The position numbers and the translations under genes were made by a program. The notes under the pieces are model-generated. The model saw nothing but the letters and a program-made list of their open reading frames with translations. It was not told where the DNA came from and did not search any database. Below are positions 4,431 to 48,870 of a stretch of 64,000 nucleotides of DNA, one piece after another. Origin of the DNA: a virus; the IMG/VR virus record IMGVR_UViG_3300019742_000002, positions 1 through 64,000 of that record; one strand, 5' to 3'. Numbering within the stretch: position 1 is the first letter of the stretch; every line of letters starts with the position of its first letter.

Positions 4431-5130
4431 ACTAGGTATTTTATATAGCCTTGATTTGGTTTTAAGGTTATATATTTGTTTTATGTTGAATATACTATCC
4501 TCTATATTTTTATACTTGTTACATAATTTATTGAACTCTTTTTTAAGTTCAGTATAATTAATCGCTCTTGAATATTCTCTATATTGGTGTGAATTATATG
4601 TACTATATAATTCCTTTAATTTATGTATCTCTATGTATATAGAATTTCTAATTTCATACAGTCTTATTAGTTCGTTTTCGTCTTTTAAATTCATAATTTA
4701 ATCCTTTGTTGTTTTCTAAATATTTCTTAAGTACACCTAATGCTGATAATTTAGCTCCTGTTATAGTTTTATTAATGTATCCAACAGCTGTATCATTTTT
4801 ATATTCAACTCTTGATAAATATCCACCATCAATGCTATCATGAGTATAGTATCTCATTCCATTTATATTGGTAAATATCTCCATAATTTAATCTTTTATT
4901 CTATCAATATACTCTTCCAAATCAAATATAGATGTCTTTAGATTTTCTATTTGGTCATTATGAAATTTATATCTCATCTTTAGTTCATCTAAATGTTTGT
5001 TATTGTGATTCTTATCCATTAATAAATTATCTATTTCATAAATCCTTTCTTTATGTTCTTCAATTTGCTCATAATTTTCTTTAATCTTCTCTCTAGTTGA
5101 TTCTATTTCTTTAGTATTATATGAACTCAT
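4422..5130 (-). other. Three small hypothetical early ORFs (4422-4694, 4654-4884, 4888-5130)
   Basis: Abutting or overlapping co-oriented ORFs. Confidence 0.6.
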
Positions 5131-19637: not shown

Positions 19638-21053
19638 ATGAAAACAATGATAAACGAAAAAGTAAGAGAGAGTATGAAGCATACTTACGGTGAGGATATT
19701 GTAGGGCTTTTGGAGTCTGAAAGATTTCCTGCTATTCAAGAAGATAACTTAGGAACACAAGCTATAGTATTGGAAAATACTAAAAAAGAAATAGCTAGAC
19801 TTTATGAGGATACCTCTACATCAGATGTTGCTGTATTTACACCAATATTTATGCCGATGACTCGTAGAATTCAACCAGCTCTTATAGCGAATAGACTTTT
19901 GGGTGTTCAACCAATGTCACAACAAACAGGTTACATTAATACTCTAATCTTCAAATATACAGGTTTTGGGGCAGACGCTAATGATAGACTTGGTGGAAGA
20001 ATTGACCCTGGTGTTAGTTCGCAAATTATAGAAATTACTGGTCATACACTTGTAAAAGGTGATGTTATCTCTAGTGATAATGTTCCTGATACAAATCTTG
20101 CAACTGTAATATATGTAGAGGGTGATTTACTATTGATTGATACTGCAGTATTTAGTGCAGGTGGAATTGTTTATGATAATGCGGCTGTACCTGCTCAAAT
20201 TGGTGCTTTAGTTATTGCTAATACATATTCAAATCAACTTACTTTTAAGAAAATTCTAAAAGGTTACACAGGTTCACTTCCAACCACACAAGCTGAAATT
20301 CTTGGGTATGATATGAAAGAAATCGGGTTCACTGTTACACAAACTCTTATTGAGGCTAAATCAAGAAAATTGAAAGCTGAATATACTGTTGAAATGTACC
20401 AAAACTTGAAAGATACTTATGGTCTTAATGCTGATGAAGAGTTAATGAATATGATGAGTTCTGAGGTTCTTAACGAGCTTGATAGAGAAGTTATTGATTC
20501 AGTAAACTCATGGGCGGCACCATCTAGTGACTTTACAATAGCAAACGGTGCAGGTGCAAGTGGTTCTACAAGATTTGAGATGGAATCAATGGCTCATATC
20601 GGAGTTAAAATCCAAAATGAAGCTAGAGAAGTTGGAAAATTGACAAGAATGGGTTCAGCAAATATTATATTGGCTACACCAAGAGTTGTTACAGTTCTTG
20701 AACAATTGAGAGGATTTAAAGCTATTGAGAATGATTCTATGTTGAGTACAAATGTAGCTGGAGCAAGTGTTGTTGGAACATTTGGTGGAATGGAAGTAAT
20801 CCTTGATAACTTTACTGATAGAGAGTATGTTACAGTGCTTTATAAGGGAGATAATAGGGCATCTATAGGCTACTACTCACCTTACAAAGGCATCTCATTT
20901 ACTAGAGTAACTCATCCTGATACAGGACAACCTGCTATTATATTGAGTTCAAGATACGGTTTGATTGAAAACCCACTAAACCAAGATAATGGTGTTGGTA
21001 TCTTTGGTAGAACATTTGATGTTATATTTGATTCTACATCGGTATTAGCATAA
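19638..21053 (+). CDS. gp23: Major capsid protein gp23
   Basis: RRIQPALIA..GVQPM, AKSRKLKAEYTVEM.Q.L..GLNADEEL, YYSPY, QPAI..SRYGL..NP. Confidence 0.97.
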   Translation: MKTMINEKVRESMKHTYGEDIVGLLESERFPAIQEDNLGTQAIVLENTKKEIARLYEDTSTSDVAVFTPIFMPMTRRIQPALIANRLLGVQPMSQQTGYINTLIFKYTGFGADANDRLGGRIDPGVSSQIIEITGHTLVKGDVISSDNVPDTNLATVIYVEGDLLLIDTAVFSAGGIVYDNAAVPAQIGALVIANTYSNQLTFKKILKGYTGSLPTTQAEILGYDMKEIGFTVTQTLIEAKSRKLKAEYTVEMYQNLKDTYGLNADEELMNMMSSEVLNELDREVIDSVNSWAAPSSDFTIANGAGASGSTRFEMESMAHIGVKIQNEAREVGKLTRMGSANIILATPRVVTVLEQLRGFKAIENDSMLSTNVAGASVVGTFGGMEVILDNFTDREYVTVLYKGDNRASIGYYSPYKGISFTRVTHPDTGQPAIILSSRYGLIENPLNQDNGVGIFGRTFDVIFDSTSVLA

Positions 21054-21059
21054 CAAAAT

Positions 21060-21085
21060 AAATTAGAGTCTTTTGGCTCTAATTT
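21060..21085 (+). terminator. Terminator after the capsid gene
   Basis: aaattagagtc-tttt-ggctctaattt hairpin. Confidence 0.75.
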
Positions 21086-21134
21086 AATAAGAAAGTGTAT
21101 ATTTTAAGTAACTATACACTATAATTATAAAGAT

Positions 21135-21211
21135 AAAAAATCTTTTATATCCAATAAGAAACTTTACTAGGCTCAACTTATTGGATATAAAAGATTTTTT
21201 GAGCCTAGTAA
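21135..21211 (+). promoter_or_regulatory. Structured 5' leader (24-bp hairpin whose loop is complementary to the 3' flank)
   Basis: 21135-21158 pairs perfectly with 21177-21200; 21164-21176 pairs with 21199-21211; follows sigma70 promoter 21103-21125. Confidence 0.8.
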
Positions 21212-21244
21212 CTCAAATATCTTAATTAAAATTTAAGGTTATAA

Positions 21245-22018
21245 ATGAAATATACAACTCCAAAAATACCACACGAGGATTTATTCTTCAAAGATGTAAA
21301 ATTTAAAACTACAGGTTATTATGTAAAAAGATTTCCAAAAGAATTGGAAGAGTTTCTTATTATGGATTTAGATTTAAAACATTCAAAAAGATACTACATT
21401 GATTCAGTTTATAGATTCTATATAGATAATTTAGAAGAATTAAAAACAGATATTACTCCTTTTATAGAATTTTATAAATCCAATAATAAATTTTATGGTA
21501 AACCTACAATAGCTAAAACATATCCTGAATTATTAGAACAATGGATAGAGGCTACCAAAAAAACTGAATATACAGTAGAAAAATTATATGAATTATGTAT
21601 AAAAGGAGCTTTACCAAAACCAAGAGAAAAATATAATAAAATGATAGTGGATTCTTTATGTGATGAAGCAAAAGAAGAATTTAATAAAGGTGTTAAATTG
21701 TCTTTTGTTATAAGAAAATATATTAATAAAGAAGATATTAATACTCTTTGTAAATCTTGTGGTAAACCAGTTAAACAATTAACAAATGAGTGTTTAGATT
21801 GTACTAAAAGTTTAAAGCAAAAAAGAGCTTCTAAGAAAAGAGGTTTAAGAATGTTAGAAGATAAACCTTCTTATGTTAGTGTTGTAAAAGGTGATGTATT
21901 TTCAGAAGATATTCGTAGAGAAAGACTTACGATTAAATGTTCTAATTGTAATAGAGAATTTTCTTATGTATTGAACTTAGGTAAGAGACACCTATTCTGT
22001 CCAATATGTGATAAATAA
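21245..22018 (+). CDS. Zinc-ribbon protein resembling the DNA-binding part of a homing endonuclease; no nuclease domain visible
   Basis: CKSC, CLDC, CSNC, CPIC then stop; directly downstream of gp23. Confidence 0.55.
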   Translation: MKYTTPKIPHEDLFFKDVKFKTTGYYVKRFPKELEEFLIMDLDLKHSKRYYIDSVYRFYIDNLEELKTDITPFIEFYKSNNKFYGKPTIAKTYPELLEQWIEATKKTEYTVEKLYELCIKGALPKPREKYNKMIVDSLCDEAKEEFNKGVKLSFVIRKYINKEDINTLCKSCGKPVKQLTNECLDCTKSLKQKRASKKRGLRMLEDKPSYVSVVKGDVFSEDIRRERLTIKCSNCNREFSYVLNLGKRHLFCPICDK

Positions 22019-26484: not shown

Positions 26485-27129
26485 CTAACTATCTTTATAT
26501 TTTATTTTATGAAATATTTCATCCAAATATATAATGATGTCTTTATAAAACATATCTTCACAATAATATATCCCCTCATAAGACAAAGAAAGAAACGAAA
26601 GATGACCAGCAACTATTGTATACACATCATTTCTTTGATTATAAGTATATGTTTTATCATAACCCAATTTTGATATATAGGTCTCTATTAACTCATATAT
26701 TTTAATGTCTATTTTTATTCCTGATACAATAACTCTAGGTGCGTACTCGGGAAGTGGTCTTTTTATTATTTCCATATTACATCCTTTTATTTTTAATTAT
26801 ATATAATCAATCTAGTTACTATTGGCAAAATATCTACTATTCCTATCAAATAAATCATCAACCTCAATATCTTCAATAACATATAAAGTAGAATCTATTA
26901 CACATCTCCAATTACTACTAGAGAATGTTTTTGAAATACCATCTTTTGTAGTTACTATTGCTTTGAATTCTACATTTGTATCTAATGGTTCAAGAGTAAC
27001 TTTAATATTATATCCTTGTTTCTTAATCCATTGTAAGCACTTAATTGATAACTGCGTTTGTGACATCTTTTGAATGTTGTCAGTATCTTTTAATACATTA
27101 TCTATAATTTTTTGCTTCTCTGATTTCAT
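26485..27129 (-). other. Two small early ORFs (26485-26775, 26812-27129)
   Basis: AAAGGA RBS; promoter 27159-27181. Confidence 0.65.
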
Positions 27130-27224
27130 CTTTTATCCTTTAGTTGTTTAGATAATGTATTATAAACTAAATAAACTTAAACTATTATTAAAATCTTTAT
27201 AAATAATCTTAAAAGGATAAACAA

Positions 27225-27758
27225 ATGGCTTTTAAAATGACGGACGAACAAAAAGAATCCCATGTAATGATGAAAGGTCTCATAGATAAAAAACCAAGAA
27301 AACTTAAAGCTTCTGATTTTAAACCGGGTTCATTAATTCTATTTTCCTATAATGCTAAATATAAGAAAAATCCTTATGATAAAACTCCTTTATGCTTTGT
27401 TATATCAACCGAGGGTAGAAAATATCTATATGGTATTAATTTCTCATGGATACCACCAGCTTTAAGAAAAGGTATTATGGATATGATATTAAAGAAAAAT
27501 AAAAAGAATATTGAAAAGGGTTTAGACTTAGAAATACCTAAACTACTCCTTATGAAAATAGCTAGAATGGGTTTACCTGCTTTTAGGCGTTATTTAAAAA
27601 ACCGTGTGAGTCCATCTGGAATAATTATTGGTTATGAGAACTACGCGAAAGTTATTCACCTAAGAGGTGAACATTTTACAGGAATATCTTCCGAACAAGC
27701 TTGGAATATAGCTGTAGCCAAGATTAAAAAAAATAAGAAAAAAGTGGCTAGAAAATAG
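27225..27758 (+). CDS. gp2: DNA end protector protein gp2
   Basis: PG.L.LF.YNAK.K..PYDKTPL...GINFSWIPP..R, RRYL; late promoter. Confidence 0.85.
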   Translation: MAFKMTDEQKESHVMMKGLIDKKPRKLKASDFKPGSLILFSYNAKYKKNPYDKTPLCFVISTEGRKYLYGINFSWIPPALRKGIMDMILKKNKKNIEKGLDLEIPKLLLMKIARMGLPAFRRYLKNRVSPSGIIIGYENYAKVIHLRGEHFTGISSEQAWNIAVAKIKKNKKKVARK

Positions 27759-46387: not shown

Positions 46388-48181
46388 CTATAGAAGAGCT
46401 ACCTTGGTGTATATAAATCTATCAAGAGTCATAAAACCTTTGAGTAACTGTAAACTATAGATAGTATTTGTTATTAGTTTGATAAAGAGCATCTTTCTAA
46501 TATTGTTCTTAAATCTTTTAACCCCTATCTTAATACCCTTTTTAATAGAGTGAATTAATTTAGCTCTTTTTCTTCTTTTAATAAACTCTTTTCTCTTTTT
46601 TTCTGATTCAAAATATTTAATATAACTTCTAGTTTCAGAAAAATCTATTATTTGATTGTTTAATTTCAACATCTTTTGAATTTCTTTAATATCAGTTAAT
46701 TCAAGTTTAGAAATTTCATTAATAGGAATAAGAAGTCCATCATGTACATTTACTATATGTTCAATTTTAATTTTTTTAGTACCTAGGTATGCTTTAAGAG
46801 AATTCATAATTTTAGTTTCTTCTAACATAAACATTCTTGAAATATTTTCATATCCTAAATTTCTAGCTATAATATCTAATTCTTTCATTTCTGAATTAAA
46901 ATCTTTATAAAAAGTTGAAAGTTTAAGTGCATCATGTACAGTTTTATCATCTTTTGTATTTCTATTAAAAGGAGTTAAATGTCTTCCAAATATAGCACTA
47001 AGATACTCCATTTTAAACATAGACCTAAATTCAATCTTTTTGTTAGCTCCTTGTTTACCTCTAATATTATCAATTGTATCTACATTGGACTCAATAATCT
47101 TTTTTCTATTTTTTATATATTCAATAAGACAAGGATAGTTAATAGGGTCTATATTATGGTTCTCAAAACAATTCTTTATTAATCTTGGTGCGGCATTTTC
47201 TAAATCAAATTCAATATAATCTCTAAATAATCCATTTCTTATTTTTTTAGGAATCTGATTTAAAATATCAAAAATTCTACCAGAAGATGTAAATGTTCTA
47301 TTAAAATAAATATGTTCATCTACTATATTTTTTCTTATTAATTTCATAGAATTAATATATCTTCTTCTTTGAGCTGGGTATCTCATATATCCTATATCAT
47401 TATCTAATTCATCGAGAATCTCTAAGTAATTATTGGGTAATTTAAATTTTATAATATCTTTGTAATTTTCCTTAGGAACTTCTCTTGGAATATTTTTAGA
47501 TTTAGATGTAGTTACATCATCAGAGAGTCTCATTATAACCATATCAATAGGTTTTAGAGGTTTTTGTTTAGAGGCTATATCATAAAACTCCTGATATTTG
47601 GCTAGAGAAATAGTACCATTTAGAACTTTTTTAAGAATAGTATCTACTTTTTGGACTTTTGAATATACTTGGTTACTGTTGTCATAAGGATTGTTTAAAA
47701 ATTCATAAGAAGAACAACCTGAACCATCAAAAGAATTACCTCTTCTTGTTTGATTAAGATAAAGGTTATAGAAATCTCTATATGATACAAAAGAAGATAG
47801 GGATTTTTTAAGGTAGGTATTACTAAGAGCAAGGTCACCTGTTAATTCATGAACTGAATGAGCAGAAGAAAGTAGTTTAGAAATAGATTTTAGAACATTG
47901 ATTGATAGGTTATATTTAATATATTTTTTTGCACTTTTAAATTGAATCATATCTTGAACAATACTAGGATGTGGAACTATAGAGTAACTTCTTTTTTGTT
48001 TTTCTATATTAGTAAAGGTTTTATCTGATTTAATTGCAGTATGAACTTGAATAATAGCCTCTTTTGGATTAAGGATATTTTTAATGTAGTAATAATCCTT
48101 GTGGATTGTAAGATATGTTAGGTCATAATTAAATGGATTGGTAAGTATATAATCTTTGAGGTTTTCTTTTTTAATTTTCAT
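46388..48181 (-). CDS. PolA-superfamily (TV-Pol-like) polymerase without a recognisable exonuclease domain
   Basis: SGRIF..L..IPK.IR; motif A YIEFDLENAAP; motif B R..FK..YLSAIFG; EETKIM; motif C VHDG. Confidence 0.75.
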   Translation of the reverse strand: MKIKKENLKDYILTNPFNYDLTYLTIHKDYYYIKNILNPKEAIIQVHTAIKSDKTFTNIEKQKRSYSIVPHPSIVQDMIQFKSAKKYIKYNLSINVLKSISKLLSSAHSVHELTGDLALSNTYLKKSLSSFVSYRDFYNLYLNQTRRGNSFDGSGCSSYEFLNNPYDNSNQVYSKVQKVDTILKKVLNGTISLAKYQEFYDIASKQKPLKPIDMVIMRLSDDVTTSKSKNIPREVPKENYKDIIKFKLPNNYLEILDELDNDIGYMRYPAQRRRYINSMKLIRKNIVDEHIYFNRTFTSSGRIFDILNQIPKKIRNGLFRDYIEFDLENAAPRLIKNCFENHNIDPINYPCLIEYIKNRKKIIESNVDTIDNIRGKQGANKKIEFRSMFKMEYLSAIFGRHLTPFNRNTKDDKTVHDALKLSTFYKDFNSEMKELDIIARNLGYENISRMFMLEETKIMNSLKAYLGTKKIKIEHIVNVHDGLLIPINEISKLELTDIKEIQKMLKLNNQIIDFSETRSYIKYFESEKKRKEFIKRRKRAKLIHSIKKGIKIGVKRFKNNIRKMLFIKLITNTIYSLQLLKGFMTLDRFIYTKVALL

Positions 48182-48215
48182 CTAATTCTCCTTTTTTATT
48201 TAGTCAAAAGTAGAA

Positions 48216-48289
48216 TGCTGTCCTACTTCTTAAGAGAGTTCATATCAAGTGGTAGGACAGCAAAAGCACCTGTATATGAACTCTCTTAA
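48216..48289 (-). promoter_or_regulatory. Structured 5' leader (long hairpin whose loop is complementary to the 3' flank)
   Basis: 48230-48245 pairs with 48274-48289; inner 48246-48251 with 48267-48272; 48216-48226 pairs with 48252-48262; lies between late promoter 48301-48308 and the RBS. Confidence 0.8.
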
Positions 48290-48318
48290 AGACTTTATGT
48301 TATTTATATATTTATTTC

Positions 48319-48359
48319 TAGTAAGATATTGGTTTATCTATATTACCAATATCTTACTA
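48319..48359 (-). terminator. 15-bp stem hairpin after gene 48370-48870
   Basis: tagtaagatattggt / accaatatcttacta. Confidence 0.75.
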
Positions 48360-48369
48360 TTCTTATTCT

Positions 48370-48870
48370 CTATACCTTAGCAGAGAATAAGAATACCATT
48401 TCGTCGCTGTTTTTTTTATAACTGTCAAAATTTGAGTTATTAAATATACTAGAACTACTAACATCTTTAAAAACTTGCTCCATTTCATCTTTAGAGATAC
48501 TTTTAGTTGATATAGATATATGGAAATATATCTTTCCATTTTTATAATCAACTAACTTCATATCAAATTTATGTATGTCCATTTTATTTAAAGTATTATT
48601 CAAGTATCTAATATCTTTATTTATCTTTATGGTTTTATCAAACTCTATATCTTTTGTTGTTATTAAGTCTTTAGAGGTTACTTTATCTATATTACCGTTT
48701 TTAATATAGATAACTCTAGCTTCTGTTGGAGATACAAATTTATCAAAAAAACCTATTTGACCGTCTACAGTTATAAATTTATCGTATACCTCAAATTCAT
48801 TAAAATTACCTTTACCCTCATTTAAGCTCATTTTCACAAACTCACTAAATCTCATATTTATTTTTTTCAC
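48370..48870 (-). CDS. Putative internal head protein
   Basis: N-terminus MRFSEFVKMSLNE; early promoter near 48889. Confidence 0.55.
   Translation of the reverse strand: MKKINMRFSEFVKMSLNEGKGNFNEFEVYDKFITVDGQIGFFDKFVSPTEARVIYIKNGNIDKVTSKDLITTKDIEFDKTIKINKDIRYLNNTLNKMDIHKFDMKLVDYKNGKIYFHISISTKSISKDEMEQVFKDVSSSSIFNNSNFDSYKKNSDEMVFLFSAKV

Follow-up and report, generated by a model that had tools for sequence, protein, structure and literature searches.

A modular leader RNA with a hairpin loop complementary to its own 3′ flank recurs before late genes of AT-rich T4-like phages

Introduction

T4-like phages are the textbook setting for translation control by leader structure, where the known mechanism is a single hairpin bypassed by a late promoter. 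Among other phage leaders, P1 C4 and P4 CI (Rfam family C4) are antisense small RNAs that are excised from the leader of a transcript and then repress it. T-even leader hairpins that sequester the ribosome-binding site (RBS), with bypass by a late promoter, have been described for I-TevI, I-TevII, I-TevIII, segB and mobE of Aeh1 and for genes e, soc and 49 (PMC2988022). Aeromonas phage 25 has, in its seg43(25) leader, a hairpin of great stability that stands just 5′ of the RBS and leaves the RBS uncovered (PMC2988022). The gene 32 leader pseudoknot of T4 and T2 has a hairpin loop that pairs with sequence 3′ of it, giving coaxial helices; the stems are small, the loops are long enough to cross them and the structure is a protein operator (PMC3014915).

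Here we describe E1, a leader element of an uncultured T4-like phage in which the loop of a long hairpin is complementary to the sequence immediately 3′ of the stem. The T-even RBS-hiding leader hairpins of late genes are the closest established kind, and E1 lacks two of their defining features. Our literature search found no paper on this short-linker form, nor on a related form in which the promoter lies between the complementary strands.

Results

E1 lies between a late promoter and an orphan gene of a T4-like phage

The window analysed is a stretch of 64,000 nucleotides (positions 1 to 64,000 of IMG/VR record IMGVR_UViG_3300019742_000002); the source record, a 91.7-kb fragment from an uncultured virus, has 26% G+C and an estimated completeness of 47%. 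The phage is T4-like, with a gp20-like portal, a gp23-like capsid protein, a prohead protease, a baseplate wedge protein, topoisomerase II subunits and a gp55-like late sigma factor, and the closest described capsid proteins are just 38–42% identical to its own. The T4-type late promoter octamer TATAAATA is found 25–33 nt 5′ of the ATG in ~25 genes of the record. Unlike these usual leaders, that of E1 places the octamer (48301–48308, minus strand) 127 nt from the ATG, with a predicted start at ~48295, ~5 nt 5′ of the long stem. The exceptions with long leaders among late genes of this promoter type are E1 and two further loci, E2 and E3; interleaved helices occupy each of these leaders, and the long stem begins 1–5 nt past the predicted late start.

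The gene behind E1 is a 597-aa ORF on the minus strand (46388–48181, ATG at 48181). Its product is an orphan late protein: Pfam, PHROG and PDB gave no match, a homologue search returned the protein itself alone, and a protein atlas offered a weak lead to DNA_pol_A (PolA, 0.76).

Several features of the surrounding promoters and hairpins were recorded alongside. Between a 166-aa ORF and the E1 promoter, two perfect hairpins of 14 bp and 15 bp abut (48319–48395, minus strand); the 14-bp hairpin spans the stop codon of the 166-aa ORF, and neither carries a U-tract. The octamer TATAATTA replaces TATAAATA before E2 (21121–21128) and before a copy of E1 on the metagenome contig L017 (~715–722), and could be either a late-promoter variant that is tolerated or a −10 box of the sigma-70 type. 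Late leaders at, for example, 6281, 11104, 54768 and 63888 have a longer cassette in common, cttaaaGtttTATAAATA...AAAAGGAG...ATG, which suggests a duplicated promoter/leader module 5′ of unrelated late genes. A perfect minus-strand hairpin of 21 bp beyond the window (L019:939–1002, genome 72438–72501) has its 5′ arm overlapped by TATAAATA and its 3′ arm adjoining the Shine–Dalgarno sequence (SD), the classical layout of T4 gene e and I-TevI; late transcripts there would be without part of the inhibitory arm.

The E1 loop and the tail beyond its stem are perfect GC-rich complements

On the minus strand, E1 opens with the hairpin S1 (48229–48290), which has 23 bp, one bulge and a 15-nt loop. The lower stem (48290–48274 with 48245–48229) consists of 17 bp, 16 Watson–Crick and one U·G, and is separated by a bulged A (48273) from an upper stem of 6 bp (48272–48267 with 48251–48246), one G·U among them. 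The loop (48266–48252) reads CUUU followed by UGCUGUCCUAC (48252–48262), which adjoins the S1 3′ arm and is the 5′ strand of a second helix, S2. The 3′ strand of S2, GUAGGACAGCA (48216–48226), is the perfect complement of UGCUGUCCUAC and lies 2–3 nt 3′ of S1; we call it the tail. It doubles as the 5′ arm and loop of a small hairpin, S3 (AAGUAGGA/UUCUACUU, 48208–48228), which appears in both minimum free energy and centroid folds and forms with the tail free. The SD, read from the sequence as AAGGAG (48193–48188), begins 22 nt past the tail and 35 nt 3′ of S1. A predicted anti-SD, UUCUACUUUU (48206–48215), matches the SD region AAAAGGAGAA (48186–48195) by complementarity at 9 of 10 positions, and constrained folds place it inside S3 in the ground state.

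The complementarity stands out from its background. The 11-mers have 55% G+C against 26% for the genome and form the GC-richest inverted repeat of at least 11 nt in the 91.7-kb record. The fold of the region has a z-score of −7.9 relative to shuffles, and when the loop and a 40-nt flank are shuffled the probability of a complement of at least 11 nt is ~1e-4. The earlier note had described a 16-bp plus 6-bp stem, a 15-nt loop, a 3-nt linker, ~20 nt to the RBS and complementary 11-mers that are GC-rich in an AT-rich genome, and this account is confirmed, with one more pair if the U·G is counted. Its placement of the element in a leader also holds: TATAAATA lies 10 nt 5′ of the stem and a late gene lies 3′.

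A terminator or attenuator was considered and rejected. There are no terminator-like sites in 48100–48500 or 20950–21350 and no U-tracts, and the tails of E2, E3 and E4 are not U-rich.

The architecture recurs with unrelated sequences

E2 occupies the plus strand of the window at 21121–21245, from TATAATTA at 21121 to the ATG at 21245. It has a perfect 24-bp stem (21135–21158 with 21177–21200) and an 18-nt loop with UUACUAGGCUCAA as its final 13 nt, and the complement of these (21199–21211) overlaps the end of the stem by 2 nt. E3, a long-loop variant outside the window (genome 88529, at 88.5 kb; L018:2530–2776), has S1 and S2 states that are almost isoenergetic (−57.4 versus −56.1 kcal/mol). 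Two more elements are present in a distant relative, G002, whose capsid protein is 49% identical. E4 has an 18-bp stem, a loop of CUC plus a 12-mer, a 2-nt linker and the complementary 12-mer; E5 has a 19-bp stem, a loop of CUC plus a 9-mer, zero linker and the complementary 9-mer. Both are built on a common scaffold of 5′ AUAAGAG, CUC and a ACUCUUAUAAU...UAUAGGAGU hairpin over the SD, and between these paralogous scaffolds S1 and S2 are wholly replaced in sequence while complementarity is retained. Each precedes a protein with a NUMOD3 motif (E = 8e-6 for E4 and 6e-14 for E5). NUMOD3 is a DNA-binding module of homing endonucleases of the Seg/I-TevI type.

The short-linker elements have a geometry in common. 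Their loops are 12–18 nt long, with 3–5 nt 5′ of the S2 strand, which directly abuts the S1 3′ arm, and the linker to the tail runs from −2 to +3 nt. Perfect GC-rich complements of 9–13 bp occur in five short-linker elements of unrelated sequence. Stems are near-perfect duplexes of 18–26 bp across members, the long stem comes first relative to the gene in every one, and each E element is positioned between a late promoter and an SD. The negative control consisted of 19 unrelated phage hairpins that share these AT-rich arms; none (0/19) has a GC-containing complement between loop and flank.

A related family has a longer spacer. Its members L003–L006 lie 3′ of the capsid gene and L029 lies before another ORF; each has an AU-rich hairpin of 13–26 bp followed by a second hairpin, H2, and a 12-mer in the first loop is complementary to the loop of H2. 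The L003-type spacer is 14–28 nt, and TATAAATA, which occupies the base of the S1 3′ arm, separates the loop from its target. Comparison of the loop strand of E4 (CUCUUAGUCGGGUUC, L024:654–668) with that of L003 (CUUUUAGCGGGGUUU, ~4487–4501) gives matches at 11 of 15 positions, a likeness of sequence that hints at common ancestry of the short-linker and promoter-in-between forms.

Searches for additional members yielded little. A scaffold scan returned nothing beyond four known contigs and unrelated hairpins, the latter being the source of the negative control, and further searches for relatives likewise gave no new members. At 27091–27221 a 14-bp hairpin has a loop that complements the SD region of the gene at 27225, but this is probably trivial because two divergent genes share the SD context AAAGGATAAA. 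A scan match at 64685 was set aside as AT-only. An interleaved repeat at L025:11990–12072 was also set aside, as carrying a tRNA-like T-arm, GGTTCGAATCC, although ARAGORN calls no tRNA there; G002 has ~20 tRNA genes (L025:7532–16513) near this repeat.

Substitutions in relatives preserve the loop/tail pairing

The one relative of E1 is on contig L017, which carries E1 before a gene with 98% identity over the first 249 residues of the 597-aa protein. Homology begins ~5 nt 5′ of S1. Upstream the context is different: the 166-aa gene, its two following hairpins and the TATAAATA of the window are missing, which is why this block behaves as an inserted or deleted cassette. Since the leader sits in a new upstream context, it travels with its gene. 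The gene 5′ of E1 on this contig (L017:1–560) is another ORF, rich in repeats, in which 'W(D/N)VSNVT...MF'-like units recur.

Within the leader, the L017 copy differs from E1 by one extra U in the loop and three substitutions, and all three substitutions fall within S2. S1 (23 pairs) and the other 93 nt of the leader are identical. Three changes in the 22 nt of S2 are an excess over the coding background of 2.5% (P = 0.018), and all 11 S2 pairs are kept: one A-to-G change in the loop strand and two changes in the tail turn three Watson–Crick pairs into G·U on the transcript strand. The chance that all three one-sided changes preserve pairing is ~0.05, a value that comes from the one relative available for E1. 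At E2, comparison with L002 (L001/L002) shows just two changes in the leader, which together form a compensating exchange of A-U for C-G in S2; the 774 nt of coding sequence that follow contain 123 changes. Pair counts on A3 for the related family (L003/L005/L004/L029) show pairing of 100% in S2, where both partners have changed in 7 of 12 pairs, of 96% in S1 with 3 double changes and of 94% in H2 with 2; slide controls on the same family are 33–54% paired. A proposed SD-sequestering helix, H3, is 78% paired in the L003-type family and shows zero compensatory changes.

These patterns bear out the pairing between loop and tail, which is real and conserved, and covariation in homologous leaders, whose absence the earlier note had named as one part of a refutation, is present both in the L002 exchange and in the double changes of the related family. 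E1 is thus very probably a functional RNA element in which the S2 pairing is under selection.

Interleaved inverted repeats can also be a property of the DNA, and the A-B-A′-B′ arrangement in intergenic positions would suit a site for protein binding, cruciform formation or recombination that is kept perfect by template-switch correction; one template-switch event could yield the paired change in E2. The L017 substitutions speak for RNA, being G·U on the transcript strand but A·C mismatches in DNA and on the opposite strand. The long stem leading the gene in every member, the constant position between late promoter and SD and the unrelated sequences of the members tell against a DNA site as well, and we give this explanation very little credence.

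A second alternative takes S1 as a stabiliser or insulator at the 5′ terminus that travels with the gene, and S2 as the fading relic of a promoter-between form that silenced read-through transcripts. It would account for the position of TATAAATA in the L003-type relatives, whose target lies in the loop of the following hairpin, for the resemblance of the E4 and L003 strands, for the three G·U pairs that weaken S2 in L017 and for the identical folding of read-through and late transcripts at E1. A relic would hardly explain why perfect complements persist in five elements of unrelated sequence, why E2 underwent a full compensatory swap or why so strict a geometry, with the S2 strand abutting the arm and a linker of −2 to +3 nt, should be conserved. 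We regard it as improbable.

By A-form geometry, the long stem and the loop/tail helix exclude each other in one molecule

In A-form geometry, the 23-bp S1 measures ~64 Å and a 2–3-nt linker spans at most ~25 Å. The linker is therefore too short for the stem, and S1 and S2 cannot coexist in one E1 molecule. E1 has the pairing of a loop with 3′ sequence that marks an H-type pseudoknot and lacks crossing loops of sufficient length (2–3 nt against 23 bp); the earlier note had judged a simple H-type pseudoknot unlikely, and on this geometric estimate it is excluded. The gene 32 leader is alike in being a T4-type leader whose loop pairs with 3′ sequence and unlike in that the linker of E1 cannot cross its stem.

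A pseudoknot might still form if S1 melted in part, with the upper 6 bp and S2 coaxial and the lower arm serving as a long crossing loop. The S2 strand abuts the S1 3′ arm with 3–5 nt on the other side, which is ideal for coaxial stacking, and the 14–28-nt spacer of the L003 type would permit a pseudoknot in cis. The price is ~17 bp of S1, when the nested S2 state already lies 7.6 kcal/mol above the S1 state, and E2, E4 and E5 are without a bulge that would divide the stem. A partly melted pseudoknot is accordingly a most improbable explanation.

Formation of the S2 state in cis costs 3.5–11 kcal/mol relative to the S1 state. An intermolecular duplex of loop and tail is estimated at a net −10 to −15 kcal/mol after opening costs, a figure that ignores the strain of placing 9–13 bp in a closed loop of 12–18 nt. 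The ground state thus leaves a strong and conserved potential for pairing unspent. Because a loop cannot reach its own tail while S1 stands, capture of the tail would be intermolecular or would follow cleavage of S1 or loss of its 5′ arm.

Capture of the tail is predicted to close the E1 Shine–Dalgarno sequence

Constrained folding predicts two states of the E1 leader that differ in SD access. In the S1 state (−36.5 kcal/mol), the tail is held in S3 with UUCUAC and the SD has an unpaired probability of 0.88. When S2 is forced (−28.9 kcal/mol) the probability drops to 0.21–0.22, and it reaches the same 0.21–0.22 when the tail is blocked as if bound in trans or the 5′ arm is deleted. With the tail engaged, S3 dissolves and UUCUACUUUU pairs with AAAAGGAGAA, a predicted anti-SD relay. 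Folding of the L017 variant gives the same relay (0.80 to 0.21), and the SD changes in the same direction in L004 (0.35 to 0.01), L029 (0.49 to 0.22) and E4 (0.21 to 0.01).

As a universal rule the relay was rejected: E1, L017 and L004 show it, E4 and L029 do so weakly, and E2, E3 and E5 do not. We treat it as a prediction for E1 and not as a rule of the class, because the SD state predicted by folding in E2, E3 and E5 is independent of S2. From these models, action of E1 on translation through SD access seems slightly the better bet. Of the possibilities that the earlier note had raised, an alternative fold gains to the extent that it changes the SD state of E1 in predicted folds; the folds do not choose among an alternative fold, kissing and a processed antisense hairpin.

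The comparison with T-even leaders can now be drawn. E1 resembles them in serving T4-type late genes driven by TATAAATA that are accessory or mobile (E4 and E5 before NUMOD3 proteins), with leader RNA structure setting translation. It differs in three respects: its promoter lies 10 nt upstream of S1, so that read-through and late RNAs fold alike; its big hairpin excludes the SD, which is accessible in the ground state; and control would go through the loop/tail helix and the anti-SD relay. The L003-type relatives do have a late promoter between inhibitory loop and target, and the T4 bypass logic fits them and not E1. Folds of read-through and late E1 transcripts are identical, and discrimination between the two at E1 was rejected on this ground. 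The seg43(25) leader is also similar, with a very stable hairpin directly 5′ of an exposed RBS before a mobile late gene in a T4-like phage; unlike E1, it has no reported complementarity between loop and flank, a comparison made by description (PMC2988022).

A model in which the loop of one transcript captures the tail of another

We propose the following sequence of events. The late transcript would begin ~5 nt 5′ of the very stable S1, whose loop would show the GC-rich 11-mer at its 3′ end. In the ground state the tail would be in S3, the anti-SD UUCUACUUUU would be tied up, the SD would be open and the gene would be translated. Capture of the tail by a loop 11-mer, forming S2, would dissolve S3 and let UUCUACUUUU pair with AAAAGGAGAA, turning translation off. 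The capturing partner could be the loop of a second copy of the transcript or an S1 hairpin freed by host RNase III, and expression would be self-limiting as E1 RNA accumulates.

Our main reading, to which we assign a probability of roughly 45%, is that E1 is a cis-encoded regulatory leader belonging to a recurrent modular class at accessory or mobile late genes of an AT-rich T4-like clade and that it acts by intermolecular, self-limiting capture. For E1 itself, we infer only tentatively that the capture of the tail takes place between molecules. A bolder formulation is that these are frustrated self-antisense leaders, in which a sender loop and a receiver tail pair only between molecules, mRNA concentration sets translation through the anti-SD relay and sequences diversify against cross-talk; we offer this as a possibility that is more doubtful than not.

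Intermolecular capture is the trigger that we favour, and refolding after RNase III cleavage or 5′ decay is the next most likely. In the latter, removal of the S1 5′ arm would let the remainder refold into S2, S3 would open and the SD would close, giving a timed shut-off or a re-capped silent mRNA. Every member offers an 18–26-bp near-perfect duplex, and at E1 the 23 bp with one bulge match the ~20 bp or more of near-perfect duplex expected of an RNase III substrate. An RNA beginning in the loop folds into S2 with an SD access of 0.21 in E1, and E4 behaves alike. On either side of the S1 3′ arm the S2 strands leave 0 and 0–3 nt, so that the S2 hairpin encloses exactly the old 3′ arm. But RNase III cutting both strands would detach the loop strand from the mRNA and leave the route in trans alone, and silencing an mRNA that is already damaged brings no evident gain. 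No RNase III or dsRBD protein is encoded in the record, which is estimated to be 47% complete. We consider such a switch in cis unlikely.

The trigger might also be a protein. The product of the gene itself, acting autogenously, or an RNA-binding protein of host or phage could occupy the S1 5′ arm or loop of nascent RNA and so allow S2 to form and the SD to close. The autogenous leader operators of T4 (gp32 and gp43; PMC3014915) are a precedent, and sequence and gene differ from element to element. A single architecture before unrelated proteins points to a general mechanism instead, and the elements have no common binding motif; the odds of a protein-operated switch seem to us long.

E1 can also be compared with the antisense RNAs P1 C4 and P4 CI, of which the earlier note had been reminded. 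The way of working is alike: regulator and target lie in cis on one transcript, with an 11-nt perfect complement further 3′ in E1, and short complementary stretches, which vary from one relative to another, confer specificity. Kinship does not follow, for E1 precedes a lytic T4-like late gene and is not in a prophage immunity region. A covariance search of Rfam, which the earlier note had suggested, was run (gathering threshold, E ≤ 10) and returned no C4 or other phage family, only generic noise from long hairpins of the miRNA-precursor type, and ARAGORN found no tRNA-like fold for RNase P at E1. Overall, the interpretation in the earlier note is partly supported.

Discussion

E1 is a real, selected and modular RNA leader; its short-linker form with the promoter upstream is new, and its mechanism is partly resolved. 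Against the known single hairpin bypassed by a late promoter, a more elaborate and clearly selected design recurs before orphan and endonuclease-like late genes of an uncultured phage clade, where the class probably throttles translation of accessory or mobile genes. On a conservative reading, these leaders are an uncatalogued class of structured RNA with good covariation support, open to modelling and to searches of viromes. If the helix forms between molecules, the mRNA would sense its own dose, and the leader would be a compact control module, portable and programmable by sequence, that mobile genes carry with them.
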